A stretch of 64,000 nt of DNA, taken from NCBI GenBank assembly GCA_965223155.1, contig CBDCVR010000013.1, positions 384,001 through 448,000 on the forward strand, in the 5' to 3' direction. Numbering within the stretch: position 1 is the first letter of the stretch; every line of letters begins with the position of its first letter. Both the position numbers and the translations under genes were made by a program. The notes under the pieces are model-generated. The model was not told the origin of the DNA and did not search any database. It was given only the letters and a program-made list of their open reading frames with translations. Origin of the DNA: Candidatus Multivoradales bacterium (GTDB taxonomy: Bacteria > Acidobacteriota > Thermoanaerobaculia > Multivoradales > JAHEKO01). This document shows, one piece after another, positions 1,414-32,665 of this stretch.

Positions 1414-3225
1414 CTAGTGGCTTCCCAAGATCCCCCGCTTCGCTCTCTCGACGGCAGTCGCGATTGGAGCGGACGCGACCTCGGCTCGCAGGATTGGGCG
1501 TAGGTGCTCCAGATAGTCGTCCAGGATGGAAGCTTCCAACGAGGCTTCGCGGATGAAGGCCGAGCGCAGGTCGGCGTCACTGAAATCGAAATGCGTCAGG
1601 ATGTCGACGAGGGCGAGGGCGAACTGTGAGGCGGCGTCGTCCCGGGTGCCGAGCCGCCAGGTCCAATCGGTCTCGGCGACGAAGTCGCCGATCAGGGTCA
1701 AGAGCGTCCGGCTGCGCCAGTTGGTGGATCGAAAGCTGCTCAAGAGCTGCTGGTAGCCGTTCTCCACGTTCTGGGAAATGTAGAAGAGCGCCACCGCCGC
1801 CACGAGCTCGTTGCGGAGCAGCGACTCGGCGTCGAGATCGCGCCACCTGTAGTAGTCGTAGGTGGTGGTCTGCCGGTTTCCGCTGCTGTCGAGATAGGAG
1901 AACTGCCTGCGGGTCACGCCCTCCCCCGCCGCGTCCCGCGCTTGGGTCCCGGCTTCGGCCATGTAGAGCCAACCGTTCCCGCTCAGATCGTCGATTCTGC
2001 GGCGCCCGACGCTGGGGGCGAAGTGAAAGCCGACGAAGTTGGCAACACCTTCTTTGAAGACCGCGTGGGAGTCGGGAAGGATCTCCCGAAAGTAGTGGGT
2101 GCCGTCGGGTCCGTAGGCGGGGCCGTAGTGCGCGGTGTCCCAACCCGTTCGATCGAGGGTGTGGACGGTCTCGTGAATCAAGGTCGCGTGCCAGTCGGGG
2201 ACGGTCCGTCCTCCCCCGCTCAGATCCTCGGCGTGGAGCTCACCCAGGACCACCTTGCCCAGCGCGCTCGAACCTCGCCCTTCGCGCCAGGCGCACGGCC
2301 ACACCCCCAGCCGTCCCGTGCCCCGCAATTCGGACCGGCAGAGCCGGTAGTGGTTCCCCGTCGCCTGGGTGAGATCCTGGGTGAAGTCGTTCACCAAGTA
2401 GAACCGCAGCCGGGGCAGACCGCCGATAGTCTGCATCAGGCGGGCGACCTCGGTGCCGACGCGTCCGGCGGTGATCTCTTCATAGGTGCGAATCAGCGTT
2501 GGACAGTCCTGGGCGCAAAGCTCGCGCAGCCGCGCGGCGCTGCCGGCCAGCCCGATGCTTCCCCAGACCCCTTCGGCGGCTCCGGAGGGGGTCGGCAGAC
2601 GGGGATCCACCAGCACGACCTCGATGGGTCCCCGCGCGCCACCGCCCGCAGACTGCGGCGAGGCCAAGGAAGCGATTCGGCTCCGCCAGTCGTCTTCGGA
2701 AAAGGCGGCTCCCGAGGCACCCTCGAGGAAGTAGCGCTCGCCCACGGCCACTGCGCTGGTTCTGGAACCCTCGCCCGTCCGGGACGGAACGACCACCGTT
2801 TGCTCCCCGAGACTCCGGACGCTGTCCCCGAGCAAGCGGCGCAGCTCGGCCGAGAGCGGGCGATCATCGACCAGGAAGACATAGTTGACGCCGGCAAGCG
2901 AGACCCGCTCGGATCCGCCGGGACCACAGGCTCCCGCTCCCAAAGCCTCCCGCGCAAGGGCCAGCCCGGTCAGATCCGCCTCGCAGAACGGGGTGGCGGT
3001 CCGGGTCGCGCCCTCGTCGCAGACCTGCCGCCCGGCCGTCAAGTCTTGGCCGCAGACCGCCGGATACCCAGCCGGAAGGTAGTAGACCGTAGTCGCGGCC
3101 TCGATCGGTGGCGCCGCGACCACGAGCGAGACAGTCACCAAGGCCCGGCCGACGAATCGCCTGGCGGCGGTCTCGGTTCCGCGGGACGTCCTCCTGCCTT
3201 CACGCCTTGCCACGAACGCTCGCAT
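1414..3225 (-). CDS. Secreted cargo-type protein 1: shared 4-Cys N-terminal domain plus HEXXH zinc metallopeptidase domain
   Basis: Signal-like N-terminus (..ALVTVSLVVAAPPIEA|ATT); TTVYYLPAGYPAVC..C..FC..C..YVFLVDD domain; TLIHETVH (HETVH at 2175-2161) and downstream EGVANF. The ATG overlaps the upstream stop (TGATG at 3227-3223). Confidence 0.8.
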   Translation of the reverse strand: MRAFVARREGRRTSRGTETAARRFVGRALVTVSLVVAAPPIEAATTVYYLPAGYPAVCGQDLTAGRQVCDEGATRTATPFCEADLTGLALAREALGAGACGPGGSERVSLAGVNYVFLVDDRPLSAELRRLLGDSVRSLGEQTVVVPSRTGEGSRTSAVAVGERYFLEGASGAAFSEDDWRSRIASLASPQSAGGGARGPIEVVLVDPRLPTPSGAAEGVWGSIGLAGSAARLRELCAQDCPTLIRTYEEITAGRVGTEVARLMQTIGGLPRLRFYLVNDFTQDLTQATGNHYRLCRSELRGTGRLGVWPCAWREGRGSSALGKVVLGELHAEDLSGGGRTVPDWHATLIHETVHTLDRTGWDTAHYGPAYGPDGTHYFREILPDSHAVFKEGVANFVGFHFAPSVGRRRIDDLSGNGWLYMAEAGTQARDAAGEGVTRRQFSYLDSSGNRQTTTYDYYRWRDLDAESLLRNELVAAVALFYISQNVENGYQQLLSSFRSTNWRSRTLLTLIGDFVAETDWTWRLGTRDDAASQFALALVDILTHFDFSDADLRSAFIREASLEASILDDYLEHLRPILRAEVASAPIATAVERAKRGILGSH

Positions 3226-4493
3226 CAGAAGGGTCGCTCGCATGAGCAACCGCGGCAGAAGGGCTCGAACTCCCGGCAGTATCGCTCGTTGAGGTCCTGC
3301 CGCAGGCGGGCTCGGTTCTCCGGGATTCGGAGCATGCGGCGTTGTCCGATCGGCATGTCGCGCCAGCGGCTGAGAGCCGCTTCGCACCCGGCGCGATTCC
3401 TCTCCATGAGCTCCGGAGCGCCACAACCTTGCGGGTGTCGCGGTCGGTAGATGGGCAGGAGCTGATCGTTCAGCCTCGCCGGGCCGGTAAGCCATGTCAT
3501 GGTGACTCCGTAGCCCTCGAGATAGGCCATGTGAAGCATGCCTCGCCGCGCGCCTTCTTCGCCGGTCGCCGGCTCCGGCGGGGTCCCCGCGCCCCGTACC
3601 ATGCCCTCGCCGGTATCCTGGATGACCGGCTCCGGATCGGGTCGCTCCGCGGGAGGCACCCGCTCCTCGTCATCGTCGAAATCCACCGTCTCACCCAGGG
3701 TGAAGCCGAGTCGATCGATCCGGTCGTCGCGATCGGGTTGGCGATACAAGACGCCCCGCAGCGGCACCGTGCCCGCGGACGACTCTCCATGAATGCGGCG
3801 AAGGCTGGCCTCGACCCTGTCGATGAGCTCGCGCATCCGGGCCCTTCCGTCGCTCCGGCACAGCATGATCGGGCACAGGGCGTCTTCGACGGTTCGGCGG
3901 AAGGTCGCGTAGTCCGAGTGGTACGGCACGTCCAGCTCCTCGACATCGACCTCCAGATCCAAGAGGCTGGCGATTCGGGTGAGCCAGGCGGTCCGGTTCG
4001 GCGATCGTTCGCGGTAGAAGCGCTCGCCCACGAAGATGCCCTGGACGCGTGCCGAGGGGCCCGTCCTGGACGGCACCACCATCGGACCGGCGCCCAGGTC
4101 GCGCACCGCGTCGCCCAGCCTGCGAGTGAGCGCCGCCGACAGGGTTCGATCGTCCACCAGGAACACGTATTCGATGCCCGGGATCTGGACTCGCTCCGAC
4201 TCGGCCGGGCAGGCCGGGAGGCCCAAGGCCTCGCGTGCCAGGTCGAGGCCGGTAAGTCCCGAGCGGCAGAAGAACCGGGCACGGTTGGTGACGCCCTCTT
4301 GGCACACCGGGACCCCCCGGGAGATGTCGTAACCGCAGACCTCAGGATAGTTCTGAGGCAGGTAGTACACGGTCGTCGCGACCAGGGGACCCGACGCCCC
4401 AAGTACGGCCAGGCACGCGAAACCGAGCGTCGCGCCTAGCCTTACGGCCCCGCGAAGGGTCCGGGCCGGCAACCGTGAATCAAGATTCGGCAT
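3225..4493 (-). CDS. Secreted cargo-type protein 2: shared 4-Cys N-terminal domain plus unknown Cys-containing C-terminal region
   Basis: ATG with GAGGG upstream; signal-like TLGFACLAVLGASGPLVA; TTVYYLPQNYPEVC..YVFLVDD..VVPSRTG..VGERF..WLTRI. Confidence 0.8.
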   Translation of the reverse strand: MPNLDSRLPARTLRGAVRLGATLGFACLAVLGASGPLVATTVYYLPQNYPEVCGYDISRGVPVCQEGVTNRARFFCRSGLTGLDLAREALGLPACPAESERVQIPGIEYVFLVDDRTLSAALTRRLGDAVRDLGAGPMVVPSRTGPSARVQGIFVGERFYRERSPNRTAWLTRIASLLDLEVDVEELDVPYHSDYATFRRTVEDALCPIMLCRSDGRARMRELIDRVEASLRRIHGESSAGTVPLRGVLYRQPDRDDRIDRLGFTLGETVDFDDDEERVPPAERPDPEPVIQDTGEGMVRGAGTPPEPATGEEGARRGMLHMAYLEGYGVTMTWLTGPARLNDQLLPIYRPRHPQGCGAPELMERNRAGCEAALSRWRDMPIGQRRMLRIPENRARLRQDLNERYCREFEPFCRGCSCERPF

Positions 4494-4512
4494 TCTTCCT
4501 CCCTCTCCGTCC

Positions 4513-6111
4513 TTAGTTGAATCCTCGGTCCGCCAGCTTCCAAGCGAGGAGACTCCGGGCCGGTATTCCCGAGATGGCTCGAAAGCGGCGGCGGGCGTCC
4601 TCGTCCTCGGGCTCCGTAAGCACCTGGTGGTTCGGACCCAGCCAGCCGCAGTAGCGGCGGTAGGCTTCCCCGTCCGCGCGCCAGCCGCCTCCCAGAAGCG
4701 GGGACCGGCTGAGCTCGGTGTAGGACGTCACGAAACAGACCCGCTTGCGGACTCCCAAGAGGAATAGGGTGGTCTTGCTCTGCGCGCCCATGTCGCTCAA
4801 GCGGTTGATGCGATCGCCGACGCGCTCGGATTCGCTCGTTGCAAGGGACGCCCGCACCAGGCTGCCCGGAGACTCATCGCGTCGCTCGAACCAGATCTCC
4901 AGGCACCCGCCGGTGCCGTCCTGCATCTGGCAGCTCGCTTCGGCTGCATTCTCAGGCGCGGAGTACTGCGCGTTGATCCAGTCCTCGTAGAGCTCTCGCT
5001 CGAGCTCCAGGGGATGCGGGGCGCGGAAACTCCGGGCCTCTTCGATCTTGGCTCGGATCTCGGTCTCGAATCCCTGGCGCAGGTCCGGCGACAGACGCGC
5101 GTATCGAGTCTGCCACTCGCGAACCAGGTCCTCGCGGCGCAGCAGACCCCGGCGCTGGGCCAGGAACCGGTTGCGCACGTCCTGGATCCACTCCCCCACC
5201 GTGCCCGAGCGGGGACCCGATCCGAAGTGACCGGTAAAGGCTTCGACAACGGGGGCGAACGTCTTGAGGTCCCGGAATTCGATCTTGGGCGCGGTGTAGT
5301 CATCGCCGCTGCCACGCGCCAGGACACTGATCTCGCCCATCGCTGGAAAGCTGCCGATGACCTTGTCCAGCATGAACCGAAACACCGTCTGTCCCAGGAC
5401 CTCCCAGAAGTCCGGGGTGAGCTCGCTCACCGACGCATGCACCATGGTGGACTCGAACTGCTCGAGCGCGCCGTCGTACATCGCCAAGCCGTCGCCCCAG
5501 TTCTGCTCGGTTTGGGAGACATAGCGCTCGATGTACTGGTTGACCTGGGCCGGGATCTCGTCCAGGAGGTGCTGCAGGAATCTGCGCTCGTCGCGAACGA
5601 TACCGACCCGTTCCAGCCACGCCGCCTGGCTGTCCCGGTCGCCGCCGACGCCGAGCTCGAACAGACGCTCGCCCACGGCGATGAAGTCGTAGCGGAACGC
5701 TAGGGCGCCGGCGCGGCCTCGGCTCGGGTAGACGAGCTCCCCCTGGCCCAGGTCCCGCAGGGCATCGCCCATCAGACGGCGCAGCTCCGGCGACGGGGAG
5801 CGGTCATCGACCAGGAAAACGAAGCGCACGCCGGACAGCGAAGCGCTCTGATCGGGCGCGCCGCAACGAGGAAGCCCAAGGGCCTGCTGGGCGAGCTTGA
5901 GACCCGGCACGTCGGCTTCGCAAAACGGCGTCGCCCGGCGGGTGGCCCCATGGATACACCACGGCTCGGAGGCGCTCAAATCCTGCCCACAGACCTCCGG
6001 GAAGCCCTGCGGCAGGTAGTAGATCGTGGTGGCCCGGCCCGGCGTAGCGGCCCCTGCCGCGAGAAGCACCAGCAACCCAGCGGCGATCTTGAATCGGGAG
6101 TTTCGGAGCAT
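4513..6111 (-). CDS. Secreted cargo-type protein 3: shared 4-Cys N-terminal domain plus helical C-terminal region
   Basis: ATG 6111 lies 2 bp after the upstream stop; signal MLRNSRFKIAAGLLVLLAAGAATPGRA; TTIYYLPQGFPEVC..FVFLVDD..VYPSRG..VGERL..WLERV. Confidence 0.8.
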   Translation of the reverse strand: MLRNSRFKIAAGLLVLLAAGAATPGRATTIYYLPQGFPEVCGQDLSASEPWCIHGATRRATPFCEADVPGLKLAQQALGLPRCGAPDQSASLSGVRFVFLVDDRSPSPELRRLMGDALRDLGQGELVYPSRGRAGALAFRYDFIAVGERLFELGVGGDRDSQAAWLERVGIVRDERRFLQHLLDEIPAQVNQYIERYVSQTEQNWGDGLAMYDGALEQFESTMVHASVSELTPDFWEVLGQTVFRFMLDKVIGSFPAMGEISVLARGSGDDYTAPKIEFRDLKTFAPVVEAFTGHFGSGPRSGTVGEWIQDVRNRFLAQRRGLLRREDLVREWQTRYARLSPDLRQGFETEIRAKIEEARSFRAPHPLELERELYEDWINAQYSAPENAAEASCQMQDGTGGCLEIWFERRDESPGSLVRASLATSESERVGDRINRLSDMGAQSKTTLFLLGVRKRVCFVTSYTELSRSPLLGGGWRADGEAYRRYCGWLGPNHQVLTEPEDEDARRRFRAISGIPARSLLAWKLADRGFN

Positions 6112-6113
6112 TT

Positions 6114-7535
6114 CTAGTCGTCCCCGTCCTGGTCCTCGGTGGTCATGGCCTCGGGATTCTCGAGATCGACTTCCCCGAGAAGCTCGAAGTGGTTCCCGCT
6201 CTTGAGCCAGCGCCAGCTCCACCAGGCCATGGCTCCGTCGGTGATCGGTGTCTCGGCGATGAGCTGGCGCATCTCCGCCTCGGTCTTCGCCCGGGCGTCG
6301 CTACACCGCCGGTTCTCGGCACAGGTGACCGGCGCACAGTGATGAGCGCCCGAAATCGGCACGACCGGGAAGTGCGTGTCCTCGCTCCAGCGCCGCACGG
6401 AGTCCGGTGGATACGCGGCAGGCGCGGTGTCGCATCGATCGTAGATCTGAGGCAGGCCGTAGTCGGCATCGATGAAGGCGGCCAAGGGAATCTGCGGGCG
6501 GCCCAGCGAGGTGACTCCAACCGAGAGGTTGCGGGGCTCGGCGAGCTCGCGAGCCGCCGTCATCAGGGCTTCCGATCGAGCCCGGTTGCGGCTGAAGTGG
6601 GCCTCGGGATCCAGAATGATCCCCGTGGCGTCGAGATGGAGCGCGCCTTCCACCAGCTCCTCGACCTGGCGGCGAATGGCGTTGCCATGCTCGGGAGCAC
6701 CGCGCCACGCGAAGATGTCGATCTCGGCCGCATGCAGGGCTTCGAGGTAGGGGCCGAGCGCTTCGATCTGATCCTCGGTCAGCGGCACATAGGTATCGCG
6801 GGGATGGTAGTGCGTGGGCCAGGCGACCCACTGGATTCCGGCCTCCCGGAGACGGGTCACGAAGTCACTCGGACTCCCGAGGAAGGCGAAGGAAGGCTCC
6901 TCACCCGCCTCGACCGCCGCCAGCACCGCCCGTGCCTCGACCCCCGTGATCGTGCGCTGGAAGAAGATCCCCTTGCCCCGGGGAATCCCAAGGCGCCAGA
7001 GATGCGCCCAGTTGGCGGCGTTGCGCACCTCGTCGATCCACGCGGCATCGGAAGGAGCCAGCGCCGCGGCGGCCTCCCCCACGACCAGCGCCCGGACCGC
7101 GTGGCCATCCACCGTGCGGGACGGAGACACAAGACGCCGGCCATCCCGGTCGCGAACGGAATCTCCCAGGAGCTCCAGCAATTCAGGGGTCGGATCCCGG
7201 TCGTCGACCAGAAACACGTAGTCGAAACCCGGCAATTCGTTGCGGCGCTCGACGCCGTCGCAGAGCTCGAGCTCCAGAGCCTCGGCCGCCGCGCGCAGCC
7301 CCGGCACGTCCTGCTCGCAGAAGGGCTCGGCCTCGGCGGTGACTCCGTCAGGGCAGGACGCCCCAGCTCCGGGCAGCTCCTGCGCGCAAGTCGATGGAAA
7401 CTCTTTGGGTACAAAGAAGATGCGAGTCCGGGCGGCCGCGGTGCCGGCCCCTCCCAGGAGGAGGAGTGTCGCCAGGGCGGCGAGGGCCCGCCTACCCGGA
7501 GAGGCTCGTCGTGGGCGAAGACTAGGAGCCTTCAT
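6114..7535 (-). CDS. Secreted cargo-type protein 4: shared 4-Cys N-terminal domain plus TIM-barrel glycoside hydrolase-like domain
   Basis: Signal RRALAALATLLLLGGAGTAAA; IFFVPKEFPSTC..YVFLVDD; C-terminal beta/alpha succession GKGIFF, GIQWVAW, IDIFAW, GIILDPE, VGVTS, LPQIY, VVPI, MAWWSW. Confidence 0.75.
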   Translation of the reverse strand: MKAPSLRPRRASPGRRALAALATLLLLGGAGTAAARTRIFFVPKEFPSTCAQELPGAGASCPDGVTAEAEPFCEQDVPGLRAAAEALELELCDGVERRNELPGFDYVFLVDDRDPTPELLELLGDSVRDRDGRRLVSPSRTVDGHAVRALVVGEAAAALAPSDAAWIDEVRNAANWAHLWRLGIPRGKGIFFQRTITGVEARAVLAAVEAGEEPSFAFLGSPSDFVTRLREAGIQWVAWPTHYHPRDTYVPLTEDQIEALGPYLEALHAAEIDIFAWRGAPEHGNAIRRQVEELVEGALHLDATGIILDPEAHFSRNRARSEALMTAARELAEPRNLSVGVTSLGRPQIPLAAFIDADYGLPQIYDRCDTAPAAYPPDSVRRWSEDTHFPVVPISGAHHCAPVTCAENRRCSDARAKTEAEMRQLIAETPITDGAMAWWSWRWLKSGNHFELLGEVDLENPEAMTTEDQDGDD

Positions 7536-8592
7536 CGTCGTAGATGGCTATCGATTCCACGGAGCCCCCCTCGGTGTTCCGCATGACCGTGACGGGAACG
7601 TAGGTCTCCTCGCCGTTGCCGACGCCGGCGTCCGAGAGCTCGCCGTGGAGTCGCCTCAGGCCGTCGCTCCGACGGGCCGCGGAGTACGCGGCCGAACGCT
7701 CGATGCCGCCGATCTCGCTGGCGAGCGCTCGTCCGACCGCATCGCGCCACCGAACGAAGCTTCGATGAAACGGCACTGGCACCTCGCGTTCCTCGAACGT
7801 GAAGCTGGAAGCCTCGGGGCTCGGTGTCGGGGTCGTCAGGCCCTCGCCGGTCTCGGTCGGTGCCTCCCGTCGCCGGTCTCCGTCACCTCCTCCCCGGCCA
7901 GGGCTAGGCACAGACAACCCACCGGCGCCCTCCGCCGGCCTCTCCGCAGAGCCGCCTCCGGCCGCAGGGGTCGAATCGCCGTCGCCGCGGTTCTCGGGCA
8001 AGGCGCCAGGACCAACGACCCGGCCCAGCTCGCCCCCCTGCGTCAACAGGCCGCGGATCCGTTCTTGCCAGGCCGAAGTCGGAATCGCACCGCCCCCTTG
8101 CCCTCCGACGCGGGACATCTGCTCCCCGACCACGAGAGTGCGCCTGGATCGGCTGAGGGTATCGGTGAAGACCCGAAACGAGGGCTCGATCATGCGCCGG
8201 CCACCCTGGGAAACGAGCGTCGGACCGAGGGCTTCCAGAAGCGCTGAGGAAGGATTCGAGTCGTCCACGAGAAGGACCAACTCGACGGTCGATTCCGCGA
8301 GAGAGACCAGAAACGGATTGGGCATGCTGTTGCCCTGACAGTCTCGAAGTCCCAAGGCACTGCGCGCCGAATCGAGACCGGAGAGGCCGAGACGGCAGAA
8401 CGCCTCGACTTGACCGGTCACCCCATCGGGACATCGCGCCCGATCCTCGGTGAGAGACCAGGCGCAGACGGCTGGAAACCGCCCGGGCACGAAGATCACG
8501 TCCACGCCGGCGACCGCCGGCAGCGGGGCGAAGACGCCCGCCAAGCCCAAGAGGCTCGCGATCACGAGCTTCCGAAGGCCGGTCCTACTCAA
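7522..8592 (-). CDS. Secreted cargo-type protein 5: shared 4-Cys N-terminal domain, Gly/Pro-rich linker, small C-terminal module
   Basis: TTG start overlaps the upstream gene by 8 bp; signal LRKLVIASLLGLAGVFAPLPAVA; VIFVPGRFPAVC..LVLLVDD..IEPS..VVGE..WQERI. Confidence 0.75.
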   Translation of the reverse strand: MSRTGLRKLVIASLLGLAGVFAPLPAVAGVDVIFVPGRFPAVCAWSLTEDRARCPDGVTGQVEAFCRLGLSGLDSARSALGLRDCQGNSMPNPFLVSLAESTVELVLLVDDSNPSSALLEALGPTLVSQGGRRMIEPSFRVFTDTLSRSRRTLVVGEQMSRVGGQGGGAIPTSAWQERIRGLLTQGGELGRVVGPGALPENRGDGDSTPAAGGGSAERPAEGAGGLSVPSPGRGGGDGDRRREAPTETGEGLTTPTPSPEASSFTFEEREVPVPFHRSFVRWRDAVGRALASEIGGIERSAAYSAARRSDGLRRLHGELSDAGVGNGEETYVPVTVMRNTEGGSVESIAIYDDEGS

Positions 8593-18731: not shown

Positions 18732-19835
18732 CTAGTAAAGCTCCCTGGGGTCCAGGCGGGCACCCGCTGGCCCATCCTCGATCCGATCGCGGAAGCGCGT
18801 CACGTCGAGCGATCCCGTCCAGGAGGCGACCCGTTGCCACGGTTCCGATTCAGTTGCGTGATCGTATTCCCGGGTCACCTGGAATTCGTAGCCGTCATCC
18901 AGCTCGACGGCGAACCGAAACCGCACCTCCTCCCGGGAGCCGGTCGGTGGCGCGAACTCGACCGCCTCGATCGGCCGGTCGCCATTGACCGCCACGGCGC
19001 GCACCTGGACCACGACCAGGCGTAGGTCTTGAGGCACGGCTCCAGCGGCAAAGTCATGACAGTAGATTTCCAGAAACGGATAGTCCGCGGGGATGCGGGT
19101 GTCCAGATCCACGATCCGGAAGCACCTGGGACAGTCCGTCGGAGCGATATCGAGCGCCAGGCTGTCTCCGCCGAGAGCCCGTTCCACGAGCTCGGGCTCG
19201 GCGCTGGTGCCGTTGGTAGTCGTACCGGCACCGAGGCTGCCCGGTCGATGCGGTACGACCTCGGCGCTCAGGGTGTAGCTCAAACTCAGAGCGAGACTGC
19301 CATCGTGCAGGGAGTCCCACAGCAAATCCGCGGTCAGCGAGTCCAGGGACACTTCATAGGTTTGCTCCGACCAGCGCTCGGGCTCGTCGTCCCAGGACCC
19401 AGAGGCGATCTCCCCGCCCGTGCCTCGCTCCGAGCCGGCATAGACGAGCGAGCTGCGGATCCCGGAGATCGGGACCGGCTCGAGTCGAACCGCTCGCCGT
19501 GCCCGCGCCTCGAGGTGTGAGCGCAGCGCTTCGACGCCGCCGGGATCGGCTTCCAGCCGCACCGAAAAGCGCAGAACCGAACGGGTCCAGAAGCGTTCGG
19601 CATCGGCCGTCGCCGTGGTCCCCTTGTAGCGAAACCGCTCGAACGCAAAGGCAGGAGCGCCGCCCTCGCGAACCAGCTCCAGCTCGGCCGGCAGGTACCA
19701 CCAGCGCAGCGAATCCTGATGATCCGGAAAGTACCGGAGGCCCTGCCCGAGGCGCACCTCGCTTGCCACTGGCCACGCTCCAGCCGCAGCTACCTGGACC
19801 ATTCCAAGCACGAAGAGCGGCAGGATCCGGATCAC
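18732..19835 (-). CDS. Short secreted scaffold-family paralog F (central region missing)
   Basis: GTGA overlap with the upstream gene; signal MIRILPLFVLGMVQVAAAGA; GLRYFPDHQD..WWYLPAELEL..GGAPAFAF..LRFSVRL matches the family N-terminus. Confidence 0.75.
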   Translation of the reverse strand: MIRILPLFVLGMVQVAAAGAWPVASEVRLGQGLRYFPDHQDSLRWWYLPAELELVREGGAPAFAFERFRYKGTTATADAERFWTRSVLRFSVRLEADPGGVEALRSHLEARARRAVRLEPVPISGIRSSLVYAGSERGTGGEIASGSWDDEPERWSEQTYEVSLDSLTADLLWDSLHDGSLALSLSYTLSAEVVPHRPGSLGAGTTTNGTSAEPELVERALGGDSLALDIAPTDCPRCFRIVDLDTRIPADYPFLEIYCHDFAAGAVPQDLRLVVVQVRAVAVNGDRPIEAVEFAPPTGSREEVRFRFAVELDDGYEFQVTREYDHATESEPWQRVASWTGSLDVTRFRDRIEDGPAGARLDPRELY

Positions 19836-21769
19836 TCGGCGAGCAGTCCCTCGATGGTTCCGGCCTGCAGGAAGACGAGCTCCGGGTTATAGCTGGACGG
19901 CGCAAGCCATTCGCTCGCAACTTCGTCATGGGCGGTATAGACGACCACCCGGTATTCGTAGATCGGTTCCTCGGCGTCGGACGGCGCGAACAAGGTCGCG
20001 ACCTCCCGAACCGACTCGGACCCTCGGCCGAACTCATAGCTCCGTTCGCTCAGGCTCGATCTCTCGGGATCGGGATCGAAGAAGCGCGAGCGTACCCGGA
20101 CGATGACCAGATCCAGCCCGTACTGCTCGAACAAGGCCTCGGTGTCGGCCACGCGGATGCGGACGTTGGTCTCCGGAATTGAGCCAACGCCGCCCCGCAG
20201 CGCGTCGAGAACGCCTTCCATCTCGGCGTCGCTGGGAGCGAGATCATAGTCGTACCAGGCGGCGACGGTTGCTCGGTCCTCGATCTGCGGAGAGATCTCC
20301 CGGTTCGAGATCGGGAGACTCTCTCCTGGAGCCACCACCGCCCCGCCAAGCGCGTAGCCTCGAAGCCGCAAGCGATTGCGCTCGCTCCGCAGGTACAGGA
20401 TGTGATTCAGGCGCACCGAGAAGGGATGCCCATTCTGGAACTCCGTCGTGGTTTCACCGGACCGCATCCAGGCCGCCCGCCCGTAGGCCAGATCATCGGC
20501 GAGGTTGAGGTTCGCGGTCACACCCAGCCTGCCCAAGTCATCGGACTCGTAGTAGACGTCGCCGCCCAGCCCCATGCGCTCGTTGGCAAGCGCCTCGACC
20601 AGGGACTGTCGCTCGGCCGAATCAACGCTCACCGAAAGAACGAACTCGCCTTCCTCATAGCTGAGCTGGGTGATCTCGGGCTCCTCCTCGACCAGGCGCC
20701 AGTTGAAGGCCGGCTCCAGGTCCGCGGTCAGGGGCCGCAGCTTCACGTCGGCAGCCGAGCCGCTGGGATTGCGATCCAGATAGGCCTCGAGCAGCTCGCG
20801 CAGGATCTCGAGGTCCCGCTGGGTCGTGCCGTCGGTCAGGGTCATGTTGACCAGGAAGTTCTTGCCCGACCCGTCGCTCGGCTTGCTGAAGAAATTCAGG
20901 TAGTAGCCTTCCTCATCGGTCCATTTCAGCGACCAGCGCTTGGGCTGGTAGTAGTAGACGCCGGAGTCCAAGTTCTGATCCTGGTAGACAATCGTGCTCA
21001 GATTCAGCAACCCCCGGACGTCCTCGAAGCCGAAGGCTTCGAGCTGGTCCACCAGGGGTTCGCTATAGAGCTGGATCTCGCGGCCGGCGCCCCGAGTGTT
21101 GAGGTCCCGGTTCTTCTCCTCGGACTCCTCCTTGGCTTCTTCGGGCGTCTTGAGCGTCACGGTGGCAACCTGGTGGGTGAACGCCCCCTGACCCACGAGG
21201 TCCGCGATGCCAAAACGGGCAAGGTTGTTCTTCTCCAAGTAGCCCTCGACCCGGTAGCGGCGGTAATCCGGCGGCAGGCTCGAGCGGCCGGTCACGTTCG
21301 GATTCGTGGTCGTGAAGTTGTCCTCGCGGGAGCGACTCCAGAAGCTGGTCAGGGGAAGCCGGTTCGAGCCCGTCTTGGTGGACAGATAGCCCTCGAGGCG
21401 GACGAACTGGTACCCGCTGCGTCCCTGTCCGGGCCGGCCGGCCCACACCGGGTTCGAGGTCGTAAAGTAGTCGCCCCGCGACGGACTCCACCATCGGTAC
21501 AGAGGTCGCGTGTCCTGCGGCTGCGCGGCATCGGGTGAGTGGATGTATCCCTCGACTCGAACGAATCGGTAGCCGTCCTTGGTCGCGCCAGAAGCTCCCT
21601 TCCAGCGCGGATCGCTGGTCGCGAAGTTGTCTCCTCGGGCATCGCTCCACCAGGAGTACACCGGAATCAGTCCTGCCTCCGCCGCGCCGGTGAAACTCAG
21701 CGCCAGGACGAGCAGGCCGGCAAACGTCCGGCTTTGAGTGCGACTTGGGCAGCAGTACATCCTCTTCAT
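19832..21769 (-). CDS. Secreted divergent scaffold-family paralog G with N-terminal triple aromatic repeat (DUF5648/beta-trefoil-like)
   Basis: ATGA overlap and GAGGAAGG RBS; signal ..TFAGLLVLALSFTGAAEA; three repeats P[VL]..[WF]WS..R.D.F.T....Y...R.EGY (about 21670-21230); then IVYQDQN..VYYYQPKRWSL resembling the family YYLP motif. Confidence 0.7.
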   Translation of the reverse strand: MKRMYCCPSRTQSRTFAGLLVLALSFTGAAEAGLIPVYSWWSDARGDNFATSDPRWKGASGATKDGYRFVRVEGYIHSPDAAQPQDTRPLYRWWSPSRGDYFTTSNPVWAGRPGQGRSGYQFVRLEGYLSTKTGSNRLPLTSFWSRSREDNFTTTNPNVTGRSSLPPDYRRYRVEGYLEKNNLARFGIADLVGQGAFTHQVATVTLKTPEEAKEESEEKNRDLNTRGAGREIQLYSEPLVDQLEAFGFEDVRGLLNLSTIVYQDQNLDSGVYYYQPKRWSLKWTDEEGYYLNFFSKPSDGSGKNFLVNMTLTDGTTQRDLEILRELLEAYLDRNPSGSAADVKLRPLTADLEPAFNWRLVEEEPEITQLSYEEGEFVLSVSVDSAERQSLVEALANERMGLGGDVYYESDDLGRLGVTANLNLADDLAYGRAAWMRSGETTTEFQNGHPFSVRLNHILYLRSERNRLRLRGYALGGAVVAPGESLPISNREISPQIEDRATVAAWYDYDLAPSDAEMEGVLDALRGGVGSIPETNVRIRVADTEALFEQYGLDLVIVRVRSRFFDPDPERSSLSERSYEFGRGSESVREVATLFAPSDAEEPIYEYRVVVYTAHDEVASEWLAPSSYNPELVFLQAGTIEGLLAE

Positions 21770-22545
21770 CCTTCCTCTTCTTGCGCCAGGATCCGGAGCA
21801 CGGCTGGTGCGCTCCGCCGGCCCTCCGCGTCCTCCACGATCACGTCCCGCACTCCAGGATTCGGGGCGAAGCCGCGGTCCAACTCGACCTCGACCAGCTC
21901 TTGGTCGATGAAGTACACCGGAAACTCGCGAAGCCCGTAGTCCGGCAACCGCGAAGTCCCGGCATGGAGATTCGCCAGAATCCAAACCTTCGAACTCTCC
22001 GAAAAGCCTTCTCCGAAGACCTCGAGGAGAAGCGCTCGGCCGGCCGGAATCGCAGCCGGCCGGATTTCCCGGATCGCCGGGCCTCCCGCGGCCGCGGTGT
22101 CAGGCTGGGTCTCCTCATCCCAGTTCCCGCCCGAGATCTCTTCCTCAGCCGGCACTGTCTCCTCCGCCCCGTCCCGGACCTCTCCGATGGTCAGAGTAAG
22201 CGCGAGTGAGCGCTCGCCGCTTGCCGCCTCGACCAGGATGGCGCGCTCCCTAGGTACTGGCGGCAGGCCCAACGGAAACTCGACAACCAGCCTCTCCGCG
22301 GAGCGTTCCGCGGGCGTCCGGCGAAGGTACCTGCCAGCCTGGCCGGCCTCGACCAAGATCACGGTGGAGCCGTCGAAGCCCGCACCGTTCAGGACCAGAG
22401 AGAAGGCCGTCCGCGCCGGAACGCTCGCGGGCTCGAGCGAAGCGAGTTCCGGACGAGCGGATTCAGTCTCAGAGCCGGAGCCGGTACCGGCGCCGGACGT
22501 CGCCACAGAAATCAGGACCGCGAGGACAAGAGCCAGTTGGCGCAT
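21766..22545 (-). CDS. Secreted protein with two IPT/TIG-like Ig domains
   Basis: Signal MRQLALVLAVLISVATSGA; repeats PELASLEPASVPA..FSLVLNGAGF and PAIREIRPAAIPA..LLLEVFGEGF separated by an acidic linker. Confidence 0.75.
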   Translation of the reverse strand: MRQLALVLAVLISVATSGAGTGSGSETESARPELASLEPASVPARTAFSLVLNGAGFDGSTVILVEAGQAGRYLRRTPAERSAERLVVEFPLGLPPVPRERAILVEAASGERSLALTLTIGEVRDGAEETVPAEEEISGGNWDEETQPDTAAAGGPAIREIRPAAIPAGRALLLEVFGEGFSESSKVWILANLHAGTSRLPDYGLREFPVYFIDQELVEVELDRGFAPNPGVRDVIVEDAEGRRSAPAVLRILAQEEEG

Positions 22546-22551
22546 CGGTTT

Positions 22552-24195
22552 CTAGCGAACCACCAGGGCCGCGAAGTTGGCATCGGACTTGGCTCCGGAG
22601 CGGTCGTGGCAGACCACCGAAGCGGTGAACCCTGAATAGCTCCAGCCGACCACCTTGCACAACCGGTTACTGCCACCCACGGCGGTAACCTGCACCGTCC
22701 CGCCCTTGCCACCACCCGAACCCAGGCCAGGCAAGCGAACCGAATAGGTACCGGCCCCGCTCCGCCGCACCTCGCCGCCCTGGCCGGTCGAGTTGTAGAG
22801 ATAGCTCGGCGATCGCAGCCGGTCGTACTCCGAAGCGACGTAGCCCAAACGGCCGAAGCCGGCCGGCCGCGAAGCGACGAGAATCTCGAAGCGGCCGTCG
22901 GAGCGGCCTCCAGCGGCGTTGAAACACTGCACACTCGCCTCGAGCCGGCTCGCGCTAGCGGTGCGCCAGCTCTGGAGCGAACAGTCGATCGCCCGGGACT
23001 CGCGCGCGGTTACCTGAACGTGAGTCGCGGCGGTGTGGCGAAAGTTGTCGAAGGTCACCTGATAGATGCCGGTGCTCGAGCGCCGGACGTCGACCGCGGC
23101 ACCGCCGGCCACGGCGGGACGGTACTCAGCCTGGGTAGCTCGATCGGCGTAGGCAAAGGCGGAACCACCCGCGGCGGAGCTGCGAACCAGGGCCGTGAAC
23201 CGGGAATCGGTTGGCACGCCTGTGGGCGCGAAGCAGTACACCATGAGGGAGGTCCCGCCGCTTGCCGGCAAGAATCCACCAGCGTTACACCGTTCCGGAC
23301 CGCTACCGTACGCGGTCACCTGACCGTGGAGGGCGGAACCCGAGAAGCGCTCGAAGGTGACTTGGTACCGTCCTGCGCCGATGCGCCGGACCTGGACGCC
23401 GCCGCGGGGATTGTAGGCGTAGGTCGCGCTCGGCCTGTAGCTCGGCTCGGACGCCTTCTCTGCCCAGACGTAGGCGTAGTTCGCCAGACTCGGAACCTCC
23501 GCCACCACTCCCCCGACCGTGCCAACGGTAGTGGTCGTCGTCGGAGGGCTCGTTGATCCGCCTCCTCCACTTCTCGAGCCCCCTCCCGAAACAGCCCCCG
23601 AAGGCGTGTCGCCGACCGGGATGGGGATCACGACGTCACTCGAGAGCCCGGTTTCGGCGCTCTCCAAGCCATCCTCTCGCGCCGGCTCGTCGTCTCCTTC
23701 GGTCAATGCAGTGCCAGCAGCGCCCCAGGCTCGGTTCTTGGTGAAGAACTTCTTCGCGAAGCTCCGGCCACCCCTCCGAAGCTTGATCTCGAAGCCAGCG
23801 CTGGTGATGGCTCCTTCCCCTTCGAAGGTCACCCGAACCAGAGTCGTGCCCGCGGACGTGGTGAGTGCGACCGCTTCGCTCGAAAACCCGTCCAGAGAGC
23901 GCAGGGACCGATCGATCGGCCGTGCCGTGAGCTGAACCTCGGTGGGGGCCTCGACCTCTTGATACCCGACCCGAAACGTCGCCTGAAAGGCATCGCCTTC
24001 CACTTCCTCGAACGACACGATCTCCTTGCTTCGGCCGAGGGCGTCTTCGAGGATGTCCCGGAGTTGGGCCTCACCCGCGCCGGGCCAGACCAAGGCGAGT
24101 GCCGCGGCAATCGCCGGGGCGAGTCGGGGAAACGACCGAGCGTGGCTCCGCCGCCCCCACCCCCAACAACTCGTGCATCGCATCTGCTTCCCCAT
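22552..24195 (-). CDS. Secreted protein: N-terminal beta domain, Gly/Thr linker, three tandem ~100-aa Cys-containing beta repeats
   Basis: GGAGG 9 nt before ATG 24195; signal ..LAPAIAAALALVWPGAGEA|Q; three repeats with VRR...G.Y.V, QVTA..C, V.C....G...D..F (about 23480-22555). Confidence 0.75.
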   Translation of the reverse strand: MGKQMRCTSCWGWGRRSHARSFPRLAPAIAAALALVWPGAGEAQLRDILEDALGRSKEIVSFEEVEGDAFQATFRVGYQEVEAPTEVQLTARPIDRSLRSLDGFSSEAVALTTSAGTTLVRVTFEGEGAITSAGFEIKLRRGGRSFAKKFFTKNRAWGAAGTALTEGDDEPAREDGLESAETGLSSDVVIPIPVGDTPSGAVSGGGSRSGGGGSTSPPTTTTTVGTVGGVVAEVPSLANYAYVWAEKASEPSYRPSATYAYNPRGGVQVRRIGAGRYQVTFERFSGSALHGQVTAYGSGPERCNAGGFLPASGGTSLMVYCFAPTGVPTDSRFTALVRSSAAGGSAFAYADRATQAEYRPAVAGGAAVDVRRSSTGIYQVTFDNFRHTAATHVQVTARESRAIDCSLQSWRTASASRLEASVQCFNAAGGRSDGRFEILVASRPAGFGRLGYVASEYDRLRSPSYLYNSTGQGGEVRRSGAGTYSVRLPGLGSGGGKGGTVQVTAVGGSNRLCKVVGWSYSGFTASVVCHDRSGAKSDANFAALVVR

Positions 24196-25428: not shown

Positions 25429-27642
25429 TCAGGCTTCGGCGCGCAAGGCGCCGTCGAGCAGCCGGGCGAGAACCCGCGGCTCGAGCGGGTGCGAGAAGAG
25501 GTAGCCCTGGACGAGATCGCAGCCGTGCTCGACCAGCACGTCCGCCTCGGCTTGCCGTTCGACACCCTCGGCGACCACTCGGACTCCGAGGCTGTGGGCC
25601 ATGGCGATGATGGCCGCGACCATCGACTCCTCGCCCTCCGGCACGTCGCAGTGGCGAACGAAGCTCTGGTCGATCTTCAGCGTATCGATCGGCAGCCGCT
25701 TGAGGTAGCTGAGCTGGGAATGGCCGGTGCCGAAGTCGTCGAGCGCGATGCGGACGCCCGCCTCACTCAGGCGCTCCAAGTTGCGGGTTCCGAGCTCGAG
25801 GTTCCGAATGAGGGCGCTTTCCGTGAGCTCGATCTCGACGTCGCCGGGCTCGAGCCCAACGGCGGCAATCTCTGCGAGAACGAAGTCCGCGAAGGTCTTC
25901 AGTTGCAGGTGTAACGCCGAGATGTTGAGGGCCACCGTGACGTCGCTACGGCCCTGCTCGTGCCAGGAGGCCGCGTGCCGGCAGGCCTGCCGGACGACTT
26001 CCTGCTCCAAGGGCACGATGAGACCCGACTCCTCGGCCAAGGGGATGAACTCGGCCGGCGAAAGGATCTCGCCGGAGCTGCGTATCCGAGCCAACGCCTC
26101 CGCGGCGACGATCTCGTCCCGAGACAGATCGAACTGGGGCTGGAAGTGCACGAGAACGTCGCCGTCTTCAAGAGCTCGGCGCAGGTCGGACTCCAGGACC
26201 ATCCTGCCGACCGCGGCATCGGTCATCTGGGGCTCGAAGAACTGCACCCGGTTCCGGCCCAGCTCCTTGGCACGGTACATGGCGAGATCGGCGTGCTTGG
26301 TGAGCGTGCCGGCATCCTCGCCGTGCTCGGGAAAGATGCAGACCCCGATGCTGGCGCTGATGTAGAGCTCGCGGCCTTGAACGTCGAGCGGCGCGGAAAA
26401 GGACTCGAGGAGCCTCTCGGCCAAGCCCAGCGCCGCCTCGTGCGAAGGCAGGCCGTCCTGGAGAATCACGAACTCATCGCCCCCCAGACGCGCCACGGCG
26501 TCTCCGGCGCGCACCTGCTTCTGGATACGCTGGGCCACCGCTCGCAGCAAGAGGTCGCCGGTGGCGTGTCCCAGCGTGTCGTTGATGGTCTTGAACCGAT
26601 CCAGGTCCACGAACAGAAGGCCCAGCAGGCGCGACTCGTTGCGGGCGCGGGCCAGGGCGGACGCCAAGGTCTGGTTGAACTGGACGCGATTCGGCAGGCC
26701 GGTCAGGTCGTCGAAGTAGGCGTGGTAGCGAATTGCTTCCTCGGCCCGGCGCTGCTCGGTGATGTCCCGGAAACTCCACACCCGGCCGATCGTCCGGCCG
26801 CCGATGCGCTGCGGCTGCGAGAAGCGCTCGAAGACCCGGCCGTCCTTGAACTCCAATGTGTCCGAGCTCGAGGCCTCGGGGCTGGCGTAGAGCTCGCGCA
26901 CCTTGGCGACGAACGCATCGGGATCCACGAGCTGCGACAGCACGCTAGCGATAGCGGCCTCATCGTCTCGCGCCTCCAGGTGCTCGACCGGTACGTTCCA
27001 CATCTCCCGGAAGCGGCTGTTGAACGCCGAGATGCGTCCGGCCTCGTCGACCACCAGCATGCCGTCCGCGGTCGAGTCGAGGGTCGCTTGCAGCAGCGAA
27101 AGCGATTCTTCGAGCTCCCGCTCGGCGTGCCTGCGCTCACTGATGTTGCGAATCACCGCCAGCCGATCGCCGCCGACCAGAGGCACGATCCTGGCCTCGT
27201 ACGAATGCTCGTCCGGATCCCCGAAGGAGTATTCGACTCTCGCCGTGGCCTGGCCGGCCTCCAACTCCTCCAAGGCTTCGCGGAACGCCGCGGCAACTTC
27301 CGGAATCGGAATATCGTGCACCTTCTTGCCGATGAGCTCCGCGCGGCCGGCGTAGAGGTCGACGTCGTCGGATGCCGTGCAGTCGCGAATGGTGCCGGCG
27401 GCGTCGAGATGCAGAAACAGATCGGGGAACGCCTCGACGATACCCCGGAGCTTCGAGTTGGTCTCGAGGAGCTCCCGCGAGCTCAGCTCCAGGGCTCGCT
27501 CGAGCATCCGGCGGTCACTGTCGGCCTCCCGGTAGGCCTCATCGACCGCCTCGACGAGTTTGTTCCAGGGCGCCGGAATCTCGAACCCCTTGCCATAGAG
27601 CCGCCGAAGCTGGCGTGCCAGAAGGCTGTGGAGCTCGGACAT
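25429..27642 (-). CDS. PAS-PAS-GGDEF-EAL diguanylate cyclase/phosphodiesterase
   Basis: DLDRFKTINDTLGH, RLGGDEF, AAEALAR, DDFGTGHS, VVAEGVE, QGYLFS; two PAS-like segments. Confidence 0.95.
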   Translation of the reverse strand: MSELHSLLARQLRRLYGKGFEIPAPWNKLVEAVDEAYREADSDRRMLERALELSSRELLETNSKLRGIVEAFPDLFLHLDAAGTIRDCTASDDVDLYAGRAELIGKKVHDIPIPEVAAAFREALEELEAGQATARVEYSFGDPDEHSYEARIVPLVGGDRLAVIRNISERRHAERELEESLSLLQATLDSTADGMLVVDEAGRISAFNSRFREMWNVPVEHLEARDDEAAIASVLSQLVDPDAFVAKVRELYASPEASSSDTLEFKDGRVFERFSQPQRIGGRTIGRVWSFRDITEQRRAEEAIRYHAYFDDLTGLPNRVQFNQTLASALARARNESRLLGLLFVDLDRFKTINDTLGHATGDLLLRAVAQRIQKQVRAGDAVARLGGDEFVILQDGLPSHEAALGLAERLLESFSAPLDVQGRELYISASIGVCIFPEHGEDAGTLTKHADLAMYRAKELGRNRVQFFEPQMTDAAVGRMVLESDLRRALEDGDVLVHFQPQFDLSRDEIVAAEALARIRSSGEILSPAEFIPLAEESGLIVPLEQEVVRQACRHAASWHEQGRSDVTVALNISALHLQLKTFADFVLAEIAAVGLEPGDVEIELTESALIRNLELGTRNLERLSEAGVRIALDDFGTGHSQLSYLKRLPIDTLKIDQSFVRHCDVPEGEESMVAAIIAMAHSLGVRVVAEGVERQAEADVLVEHGCDLVQGYLFSHPLEPRVLARLLDGALRAEA

Positions 27643-27648
27643 GCCTCG

Positions 27649-28782: not shown

Positions 28783-29172
28783 TTCGGCTCGCCTCCACCG
28801 GCGCGATCGGGCGCGCCTGGTTGAATACCGCGACCGAAGTGCAGAAAAGATGCCCGAAATATCGACAGTTTGCCATATTGGGATGAGCCCTGCGGACATT
28901 GCCTGTTTCGCTCCTTTCGCGGCGAGCTGCCGCCTCCCGGGCCCTTCGAACAGGGAAATCCGCCTGGGACCGACTCCCCGAATCCGCAAGGTCGGCGACC
29001 GCGGCTTGGATCGAGGCGGGCCGAGCCCCGATCATCTCGATCAACAGCCCAATCGGTGATGCAACGCGACCTCAGCTGGGACAATGCGGCAAATATTGGC
29101 GGTGGCCTGCCGCAGGACGTACCTCGCCCGGCCTCACAGAAACCCTGCATTCCGAACCTTGGGACACGAAGA

Positions 29173-29792: not shown

Positions 29793-29877
29793 TGGTGCCG
29801 GAGCCGGGACTCGAACCCGGAAGCCCGAAGGCGGGGGATTTTAAGTCCCCTGCGTCTACCAGTTCCGCCACTCCGGC
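29793..29877 (-). tRNA. tRNA-Leu (UAA)
   Basis: GCCGGAGTGGCGGAACTGGTAGACGCAGGGGAC-TTAAAA-TCCCC..GGTTCGAGTCC..GGCACCA; long variable arm; CCA encoded. Confidence 0.97.
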
Positions 29878-32363: not shown

Positions 32364-32665
32364 GCCCTGCTTCGGTAGCCGTCCCGGCGGCGCCTTGTGG
32401 TGTCCCGCTCGGCTGCGGCCGGTGCTCCGGCGCCTGGCCGCGCAAGGCATGTCTCTCCGAGAGCGGCGGCTCTGAGCCGTGCGGCTAGAATCCGAGGACA
32501 GTGCCTAGGACTGATCTGAAATTCCGGGCGCCCGTCCGGAATCGCCCGCAGTCGGCTAGTTGCAGGGCCGCCCGTGCCGAGTCGTCGCGCCGTCCGGAAC
32601 TCGTGGTGGGCTGGGGCGGCGCTTCCCCGCGACCAGAGCCAGCGCGGTTCGCTTCACCCCTGTCG

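Follow-up and report, generated by a model that had tools for sequence, protein, structure and literature searches.

Several described systems share parts of the organisation of the operon analysed here, which lies in a 64,000-nucleotide stretch of DNA (the window). As in cellulosomes, several enzymes with one small module are encoded beside genes for a non-catalytic, exported scaffold rich in beta-sandwiches, and carbohydrate-binding modules lie on the scaffold side. Unlike the cellulosome, the scaffold (S) consists of separate paralogous proteins and not of one protein with repeated modules, the enzymes are of redox or peptidase types, the hosts are diderms and the docking is proposed; cohesin and dockerin had no Pfam match in any of the 14 proteins. 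The mycobacterial mce operons (Mce/Mla heterohexamers) likewise encode about six paralogous exported proteins with distinct orthologs that are taken as one hetero-oligomer, whereas the operon proteins include neither an MlaD/Mce domain nor a permease or ATPase partner, and the S fold is unrelated according to the PDB search. In S-layers with SLH-anchored exoenzymes, exported self-assembling proteins are accompanied by enzymes with a common anchoring module; the window operon differs by its six or seven distinct subunits in place of one or two and by the lack of any match to SLH or other S-layer families (Pfam and NCBIfam, 14/14 proteins). Polymorphic toxins (Rhs, CdiA, MAF) have tandem constant N-terminal and variable C-terminal domains, and the complement MAC and the tripartite and binary toxins have several paralogous secreted subunits encoded together. 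The operon departs from the former in having no immunity genes, no Rhs/YD, PT-TG, trafficking or known toxin domain, and enzyme relatives that carry tyrosinase or cytochrome-like domains, and from the latter in that S shows neither fold nor sequence similarity to them and no amphipathic insertion element is evident. Regarding chaperone-usher and type V pili, no usher, chaperone or pilin family was found and no pilin match reached a meaningful TM-score. The preliminary description had seen no T6SS or eCIS sheath, tube or baseplate, no ATPase and no Rhs/YD repeats, and Pfam and NCBIfam (AAA+ ATPases included) agree for 14/14 proteins; PHROGs gave no sheath, tube, baseplate or other match and PADLOC no anti-phage family in the 10 of 14 proteins scanned (S1-S7, B1, C3 and C4). 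A full-text literature search, covering main texts without supplementary files, found no paper on this operon. The claim that it is not a named system holds in that it is an undescribed, conserved multi-gene set of exported proteins present in several phyla.

Fourteen tightly packed ORFs occupy window positions 1414-24195, all on the minus strand. Between adjacent genes there is either an overlap of 4-19 nt or a spacer of 2-51 nt (with starts chosen by hand, that of C5 being the least certain). Each of the 14 proteins has a single N-terminal hydrophobic leader within its first 66 residues, defined heuristically as a hydrophobic 12-residue stretch with a mean Kyte-Doolittle value of 1.97-3.07, and the same hydropathy scan found no later TM-like window in any of them; a conserved lipobox was not found in these leaders. 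ORFs and hydropathy thus confirm the earlier reading of 14 consecutive genes with small gaps or overlaps and a leader on each. Scanning the two ends of the operon for promoters and terminators gave 0 sites. Over all 14 proteins the sole Pfam match was DUF5648 in S1 and the sole NCBIfam match the CoaZ repeat in B2; judged by sequence, the core proteins match no described family.

Seven paralogs of one family had been proposed for the centre of the operon, and profile comparison of S1 and S2 changed this to five full members (S3-S7), one shortened (S2) and one remote (S1). The full-length paralogs share 23-35% identity in an all-versus-all blastp (E 1e-13 to 1e-42, several as two segments). S4 (14843..16744, 633 aa) is the best-conserved subunit, with 45-47% identity to Nitrotoga and gammaproteobacterial orthologs. 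S3 (16794..18710, 638 aa) and S6 (10845..12986, 713 aa, extended at the N-terminus and carrying an acidic insert) belong to one clade, S3/6, of which S3 is an additional copy peculiar to the window. S5 (13038..14846, 602 aa) is the paralog that was modelled, and S7 (8585..10801, 738 aa), of the S5/7 clade, contains a charged low-complexity linker of ~160 aa. S2 (18732..19835, 367 aa) comprises part of the N-domain only; by blastp it matches only S7, weakly (E 7e-5), and hhalign against the S alignment identifies it as homologous to the initial part of the S N-domain (probability 98.6%, E 7e-16). S1 has no blastp match among the 14 proteins, and its C-terminal part aligns with S2 in hhalign (probability 90%, E 1.5e-6). 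Spacers between the S N- and C-domains, always at that site, are either TPR arrays or low-complexity segments; Pfam on 40 long members of the family returned only TPR (TPR_2 in 4/40) and low-complexity families.

An S profile searched against PDB sequences gave a best E of 0.28. The AF2 models of S5 are of moderate confidence (pTM 0.53 and 0.66; pLDDT 79.0 over the whole protein, 83.4 over the N-domain) and predict an N-domain at residues 35-305, a disordered linker at 306-337 and two beta-sandwiches at 340-600. Foldseek of the N-domain model against the PDB gave 0 matches at E<=1e-3, ESM Atlas gave no usable match and BFVD a single one at E<=1e-3, an uncharacterised Medusavirus protein (TMq 0.33) that is not informative. 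On the basis of the PDB and BFVD and of a model of moderate confidence, the predicted fold of the S N-domain has no PDB counterpart.

Apart from the window, the operon was found in 36 loci, 34 by a pattern scan and 2 by genome search, the host records being Nitrotoga, Arenicella, Marinicellaceae, Wenzhouxiangellaceae, Desulfobacterales, Campylobacterales and Acidobacteria; hosts thus include Gammaproteobacteria and Desulfobacterota. At E<=1e-3 the S N-domain profile matched 2035 cluster representatives out of 1.84 billion, and at <=1e-10 it matched 1244, so that a family of about two thousand 50%-identity clusters, always organised in one operon with a fixed paralog set and reaching from nitrite oxidisers to sulfate reducers, is without annotation, structure or any paper found. 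In a tree of 101 N-domains, the S4, S5, S6 and S7 of the window fall into separate clades (support 0.98-1.0), each with one member per proteobacterial locus, and S orthologs across phyla are closer than S paralogs within one genome. All 19 loci with at least 1 kb of flank on both sides contain exactly one S2, one S4-type, one S3/6-type and one or two S5/7-type genes, and gene order is kept within two operon types across phyla. This one-each retention argues for a fixed heteromer, and the earlier suggestion that the tandem paralogs form one heteromer fits it, as far as conserved gene content can indicate. No ATPase, membrane or usher-like gene is conserved across the loci, and the operon is self-contained.

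The proteins encoded upstream of the full paralogs carry binding-type modules. B1 (22552..24195, 547 aa) consists of a leader, an N-terminal region and three two-Cys repeats of ~95 aa, with no Pfam family above cut-off. Its N-terminal region weakly resembles X2, the first-gene protein of related operons and the only other cluster conserved across loci (21 loci); the B1-X2 alignment (hhalign E 1.6e-3 to 3e-3, probability 10-16%) is a weak lead, as is the B1-X2-c7 relation (probability 4-17%). B2 (21766..22545, 259 aa) is an exported protein with two Ig-like repeats of the CoaZ type (NCBIfam NF058597, E 1.8e-10, 40.8 bits against a cut-off of 30) and has homologs at the equivalent position in three other loci (L014, L039 and L055). 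S1 (19832..21769, 645 aa), whose cluster occurs in the window and in 29 of the 34 pattern-scan loci (L009-L042), has a leader and three DUF5648 repeats (PF18885, E 1.8e-5, 25.4 bits against a cut-off of 25) ahead of its remote S-like part. In the published account, DUF5648 is a three-bladed glycan-recognition propeller and the receptor-binding domain of Bacteroidales pore-forming toxins; a glycan-binding propeller in S1 fits the binding modules of the preliminary description.

At the other end of the operon, the five C proteins were said to share an N-terminal domain and to have unrelated C-termini, and this is borne out by blastp, where similarity among C1-C5 is confined to an N-terminal region at ~20-190 (33-56% identity, E 4e-13 to 1e-41). 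The common domain has ~160 residues and four Cys conserved in the alignment of C1-C5, and none of the five C-termini matches a Pfam or NCBIfam family, toxin families included. C1 (7522..8592, 356 aa), which overlaps S7 by 8 nt, ends in a low-complexity C-terminus, C3 (4513..6111, 532 aa) in a domain without family match and C4 (3225..4493, 422 aa) in a Cys-rich region, also without family match. C2 (6114..7535, 473 aa) carries a possible TIM-barrel glycosidase-like domain, a lead given by an Atlas feature score of 0.91 to 'GTA TIM-barrel-like' clusters, and C5 (1414..3243, ~609 aa, start uncertain) a zincin-like domain with an HExxH motif (HETVH, residue 357) that is also present in the protein following S7 in locus L015; the C-terminal parts of C2 and C5 have no Pfam or PDB sequence match. 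A receiver-like fold was considered for C3 from a 'LVDD' strand and 15.5 bits to a response-regulator NCBIfam model with a cut-off of 200, and is unproven. A 'YYLP' strand after the leader, common to C and S, was likewise considered as a sign of homology and is not evidence of it because hhalign finds no relation between the C N-domain and the S, S1 or S2 profiles (probability <=1.1%).

Whether the scaffold family and the 4-Cys domain occur together had been named beforehand in the preliminary description as the point on which it could fall, and the outcome favours it: in 6/6 assessable loci, window included, the gene directly after the S7-clade gene is of the C family, and the common N-domain itself is detectable in 5/6. 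Conversely, S7-clade genes were confined to operons with C-type genes, and in the window genome the C domain occurs only at this locus, plus its C8 duplicate. In relatives from Nitrotoga and Gammaproteobacteria the domain is joined to other enzymes: tyrosinase (PF00264, E 3e-31 and 1e-32, with hemocyanin/tyrosinase PDB matches down to 1e-47) and cytochrome-like proteins with two CxxCH motifs, found in 5 of 10 cluster-3 ORFs (L009-L012 and L015), the Nitrotoga one having a best E of 0.052 against PDB sequences. No C gene was found in 15 TPR-type operons with at least 1 kb of downstream flank, and therefore the core works without cargo; the C domain was also absent from 5/5 genomes with a TPR-fused S gene (four TPR-type operons and L039). 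The C-family sample is small, with 15 clustered ORFs in 6 loci, window included, and the breadth of the family is poorly sampled since word-indexed database searches with the C N-domain returned the window's own protein alone, or 6 proteins of which two were the window's own.

The reading that we prefer, tentatively and at somewhat less than an even chance, is that the operon is horizontally mobile and encodes not a toxin injector but an exported hetero-oligomeric scaffold whose enzymes are tethered to it or serve in its maturation. A Sec-exported, ATP-independent assembly would form from S1, S2, S4, S5/7-type and S3/6-type subunits, one copy each, joined through their homologous N-domains; the tandem C-terminal beta-sandwiches would be held apart by a variable linker, which S5 has in short form, S7 as a long charged spacer and the Desulfobacterota-type operons as a TPR array. 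Modules that differ by lineage, namely the DUF5648 of S1, the B1 repeats and the Ig-like repeats of B2, may fix the assembly to a glycan surface, for which the envelope of the producing cell is the simplest candidate. In S7-containing operons, enzymes would be tethered to the scaffold, or act on it, via the ~160-residue N-domain, presumably disulfide-bonded: in the window a peptidase-like protein with HExxH, possibly a TIM-barrel glycosidase, and three proteins of unassigned type, and in Nitrotoga and Gammaproteobacteria tyrosinase and two-CxxCH cytochrome-like proteins. A complex prediction for the S7 N-domain and the S7 C-domain with the C1 N-domain as partner, run without controls, scored 0.00 (mark 0.32) and counts neither for nor against docking. 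The C enzymes might act on S proteins instead of being displayed by them. By itself, the Sec route takes a protein of a diderm only as far as the periplasm, and the operon has no gene for an outer-membrane component; TPR arrays favour the periplasm and glycan-binding DUF5648 the surface. A bolder form of this reading, which is doubtful, would see here a new class of Sec-exported assembly that needs no energy source: six or seven distinct paralogs, with a fold absent from the PDB, would build a pseudo-symmetric ring or cage that recruits redox and hydrolytic enzymes (tyrosinase, dihaem cytochromes and a zincin) by way of a dedicated targeting domain, acts as an extracytoplasmic enzyme compartment or display platform, has leaderless cytoplasmic cousins and has spread by horizontal transfer over at least five phyla.

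An alternative, improbable as a whole, is a sheath, lattice or matrix that S proteins build by polymerising, either on the outer membrane or beneath it, with the C proteins as maturation factors recruited through the domain that they share, tyrosinase and haem enzymes cross-linking the Tyr/Trp-rich S proteins oxidatively while peptidase and glycosidase process them. The tyrosinase and two-CxxCH domains of C-family members suit such a coat, as do the composition of the S proteins, which are acidic (pI 4.7-5.5) and aromatic-rich (8-11% F+W+Y) with an invariant Y-L/I-P strand, and the absence of an energy source or secretion machinery from the operon. Immediately upstream of the operon in the window genome, and on its strand, are a FIST gene and a PAS-GGDEF-EAL gene, which would also fit such a coat, but no GGDEF-motif ORF was found in 34 loci, so that c-di-GMP genes are not next to the operon elsewhere. 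Moreover, the strict one-each retention is better explained by a defined complex than by a polymer with one or two major subunits, and most operons (25 TPR-type loci) have no C gene at all.

Quite improbable is the view, close to the preliminary description, of a secreted multi-component toxin in which repeats bind a target cell, S proteins form a ring or pore and the common domain loads toxic enzymes. C1-C5 do show what defines polymorphic toxins, a constant N-terminal region and variable C-termini in tandem genes, the window set includes peptidase-like and possible glycosidase domains, multi-part pore formers with tandem paralogs are known, and the role of DUF5648 in Bacteroidales toxins points the same way. 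Against this, delivery of interchangeable toxic cargo is not supported, given the tyrosinase and cytochrome-like domains of the relatives, the majority of operons without any cargo and the lack of room for immunity genes: no ORF of at least 100 aa lies between the C genes on that strand (gaps of 2-19 nt or overlaps), and no cognate immunity gene was found directly after each C gene. Nor is the pore supported: the full S5 model matches only generic Ig/FnIII/MG structures in the PDB (TM<=0.19), no MACPF, aerolysin or other pore-former fold matched the S5 models in Foldseek, Pfam found no MACPF/CDC/aerolysin family in 14/14 proteins, and the conserved S hairpin is predicted to have a charged, variable tip and not to be an amphipathic membrane hairpin.

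Least probable is that there is no complex, S being independent exported adhesins or polymer-binders and C unrelated exoenzymes with a common folding or export pro-domain, which would suit the beta-sandwich-rich S proteins (adhesins are among the S5 Foldseek matches) and a C N-domain that could be a pro-domain, but independent adhesin paralogs normally vary in number, whereas each S type occurs once in 19/19 fully flanked loci with orthologs and gene order kept across phyla, and the C domain was never found away from S7-type operons in the genomes searched.

If the subunits form one assembly, as in the scaffold reading preferred here, it would represent an envelope machine of a new kind, built with neither an ATPase nor secretion genes dedicated to it, and a common enzyme-targeting domain, if true, would be a new docking principle usable for enzyme display. 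Even conservatively read, the operon adds four new domain families (the S N-domain, the S C-domain, the C N-domain and X2), and the model is testable in culturable hosts, namely Nitrotoga enrichments and, for a leaderless form, Pararhizobium qamdonense T808. Pfam found nothing relevant in 7 Pararhizobium proteins; distant relatives without leaders are encoded on a Pararhizobium plasmid, and the assembly is therefore not inherently extracytoplasmic.

The minus strand of window positions 1414-24195 is occupied by 14 ORFs which, with the starts chosen here, comprise two repeat or Ig-like proteins (B1, 22552-24195; B2, 21766-22545), seven members of a putative scaffold family (S1, 19832-21769; S2, 18732-19835; S3, 16794-18710; S4, 14843-16744; S5, 13038-14846; S6, 10845-12986; S7, 8585-10801) and five proteins with a common N-domain and unrelated C-termini (C1, 7522-8592; C2, 6114-7535; C3, 4513-6111; C4, 3225-4493; C5, 1414-3243). 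Adjacent genes overlap by 4-19 nt or are spaced by 2-51 nt, and the G+C content of the block (64-69%) is similar to that of the remainder of the window. A hydrophobicity heuristic found one hydrophobic stretch within the first 66 residues of each product and no membrane-like segment beyond it; 13 of the 14 products are acidic (pI 4.5-5.6), B1 being the exception. The close packing and the single hydrophobic stretches, all N-terminal, confirm the tandem block of genes with N-terminal leaders reported in the preliminary description. Scans of both operon ends for promoter-like and terminator-like sites were negative.

S3 to S7 are paralogs over their full length (23-35% identity by blastp), and profile comparison extends the family to S2, a shortened member (probability 98.6%), and to S1, which is remotely related (90% against S2). 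A search with S5 returned 58 proteins, every one hypothetical or named merely after a fused TPR region, and an exhaustive profile search with the S N-domain reached 2035 cluster representatives at E<=1e-3, of which 1244 pass a cut-off of 1e-10 and 421 one of 1e-30. A pattern scan in which each species was represented by a single genome yielded 34 loci, and classification of all their ORFs separated two operon types. Type A, found in the window, Nitrotoga, Arenicella, Marinicellaceae, Wenzhouxiangellaceae and others, has the order S1-S2-S4-S5-S6-S7 followed by C-type genes. Type B (25 loci, in Desulfobacterota, Campylobacterales and some Gammaproteobacteria) has the order X2-S1-S2-S5::TPR-S4-S6 without C genes, X2 being the first-gene protein. 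Two loci of other Acidobacteria (L039 and L055) show the order X2-B2-S1-S2-S4-S5-S3-S5/7, and the last S gene of L039 bears a TPR array. In a tree of 101 N-domains, S4, S5, S6 and S7 of the window fall into four distinct well-supported clades, each represented by a single gene per proteobacterial locus; moreover, exactly one S2, one S4-type, one S3/6-type and one or two S5/7-type genes are present in all 19 loci with at least 1 kb of flank on either side. A defined hetero-oligomer that would require Sec export alone best accounts for such retention of one paralog each, for the conserved gene order and for the self-contained nature of the operon, in which genes for an ATPase, a membrane protein or an usher are lacking. 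Residues ~305-467 of S7 comprise a long, charged and helix-like segment rich in E/R and then a low-complexity spacer rich in Gly/Ser/Thr/Ala, at the position where other lineages carry 300-600 residues of TPR repeats. This junction of the N- and C-domains is an insertion hot-spot, filled by a short linker, a charged spacer or a TPR array, and the two halves of the S proteins may accordingly form separate layers.

The operon was found in three of 301 sampled genomes of the window's phylum (its own and two additional ones) and is absent from same-genus and same-family genomes of 99-100% completeness. S4 and S6 of the window share 45-49% identity with their Nitrotoga and gammaproteobacterial orthologs, whereas they share 32-37% with those of L039 and L055. 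Together with the patchy distribution by phylum, this closer relationship indicates that the operon was acquired by horizontal transfer.

Comparisons with known families gave little. For all 14 proteins, the sole Pfam-A match was DUF5648 at the S1 N-terminus, barely over the cut-off, and the sole NCBIfam match was a CoaZ repeat in B2; PADLOC and PHROGs gave no match for the ten proteins compared, and the best hit of the S-family profile among PDB sequences had an E-value of 0.28. In the AlphaFold2 model of S5 (pLDDT 79.0, pTM 0.53), a disordered linker joins an alpha/beta N-domain (35-305) to two C-terminal beta-sandwiches, and the full model resembled only generic Ig/FnIII/macroglobulin-type sandwiches among PDB folds (TM <=0.19). 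The N-domain alone, modelled from 39 sequences (pLDDT 83.4), had no PDB match at E<=1e-3 (best 1.6e-2, TMq 0.17) and one uninformative match in BFVD; new fold is used here in the sense of a domain without a match in PDB or BFVD. No description of the S/C system was found in four sequence libraries, the PDB (sequence and fold) or the full-text literature searched, and we regard its parts as categorically new. In its logic the system recalls those that pair a scaffold with docking. Its assembly, docking, location and role are inferred from the genes throughout.

The mutual likeness of C1 to C5 is confined to the first ~150-190 residues (33-56% identity by blastp), and profile comparison detected no kinship of this N-domain with the S family (probability <=1.1%). 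Four cysteines are conserved in the alignment of the window's proteins; proteobacterial relatives retain the second pair only, alongside L-x-D-D, G-E and W positions that are invariant. An HMM detected the domain in seven ORFs of four loci (three in L009, one in L010, two in L011 and one in L012), always immediately after an S7-clade gene. The post-S7 gene of a further locus, L015, has an HExxH domain in common with C5 but no detectable N-domain. With these and the window, a C-cluster gene follows S7 in six of six assessable S7-type loci; none was found in the 15 type-B loci having downstream flank, nor the N-domain anywhere in five genomes with a TPR-fused S gene. Within the window's genome, the domain occurs at this locus and on a short duplicate contig only. 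Being confined to S7-type operons, the C N-domain may serve to target enzymes to the S assembly.

The variable parts of the C family appear from their sequences to be enzymes. In Nitrotoga and Arenicella this part is a tyrosinase domain (PF00264, E 3e-31 and 1e-32), and these relatives match tyrosinase and hemocyanin PDB entries. Five relatives in L009, L010 and L012 carry two haem-binding CxxCH motifs in a domain without a Pfam family over the cut-off or a PDB sequence match. The tyrosinase and two-CxxCH relatives lie at L009:9944-15063, L010:11082-14122, L011:15988-17853 and L012:15911-17659. As a lead only, the variable part of C2 is a possible TIM-barrel glycosidase (Atlas feature score 0.91). 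The C enzymes could be either displayed cargo or maturation factors of the assembly. Toxin delivery through a ring or pore of S paralogs, towards which the preliminary description of a secreted system with interchangeable cargo leaned, is disfavoured by the enzyme-type variable domains of the relatives, by an intergenic spacing that leaves no room for immunity genes among the C genes, by the many operons without cargo and by the lack of a pore-former fold match for the S5 model in the PDB.

The first operon position is taken by B1, X2 (21 loci) or the c7 proteins of Arenicella and Marinicellaceae, which have at most a short motif in common after the leader (hhalign probability 4-17%), and B2-like proteins precede S1 in L014, L039 and L055. 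The S1 N-terminus carries three repeats of DUF5648, which a preprint describes as a three-bladed glycan-recognition propeller that serves two O-antigen-targeting Bacteroidales toxins as their receptor-binding domain and is also present in GH70 enzymes (10.1101/2025.01.06.631476).

Upstream on the same strand lie genes for a FIST protein and a PAS-PAS-GGDEF-EAL protein (25429-28989, minus strand) and, 5.6 kb from the operon, a tRNA gene (29796-29877, minus strand), which could represent a local regulator and an island border; the downstream neighbour is an EamA transporter. The other loci conserve none of these neighbours, and no GGDEF-motif ORF occurs in the 34 loci. A protein at 32501-34687 (plus strand) joins a cupredoxin domain to a NosD-like right-handed beta-helix, and a beta-helix protein is also encoded after the C gene of L012. 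A DUF5117/DUF4953 Met-zincin protein (50680-53268, minus strand) and a 1383-aa HAMP histidine kinase (53472-57623, minus strand) are ordinary neighbours with no tie to the operon. The S7-to-S3 part (window 8269-17836) recurs at 97.1-99.85% DNA identity on a separate 9572-bp contig of the same genome (contig C8); this second copy is either a strain variant binned with the assembly or a genuine recent duplication.

A tblastn search of plasmids returned a single record, p2 of Pararhizobium qamdonense T808 (NZ_CP119567.1, about 821.7-838.8 kb), where at least seven successive genes are annotated as hypothetical protein and four to five of them encode distant S-family members. The N-domain of these relatives begins at residues 2-8, with no leader before it, and the S fold is therefore not limited to exported proteins; in this locus a cultured strain carries a cytoplasmic-looking form of the family.
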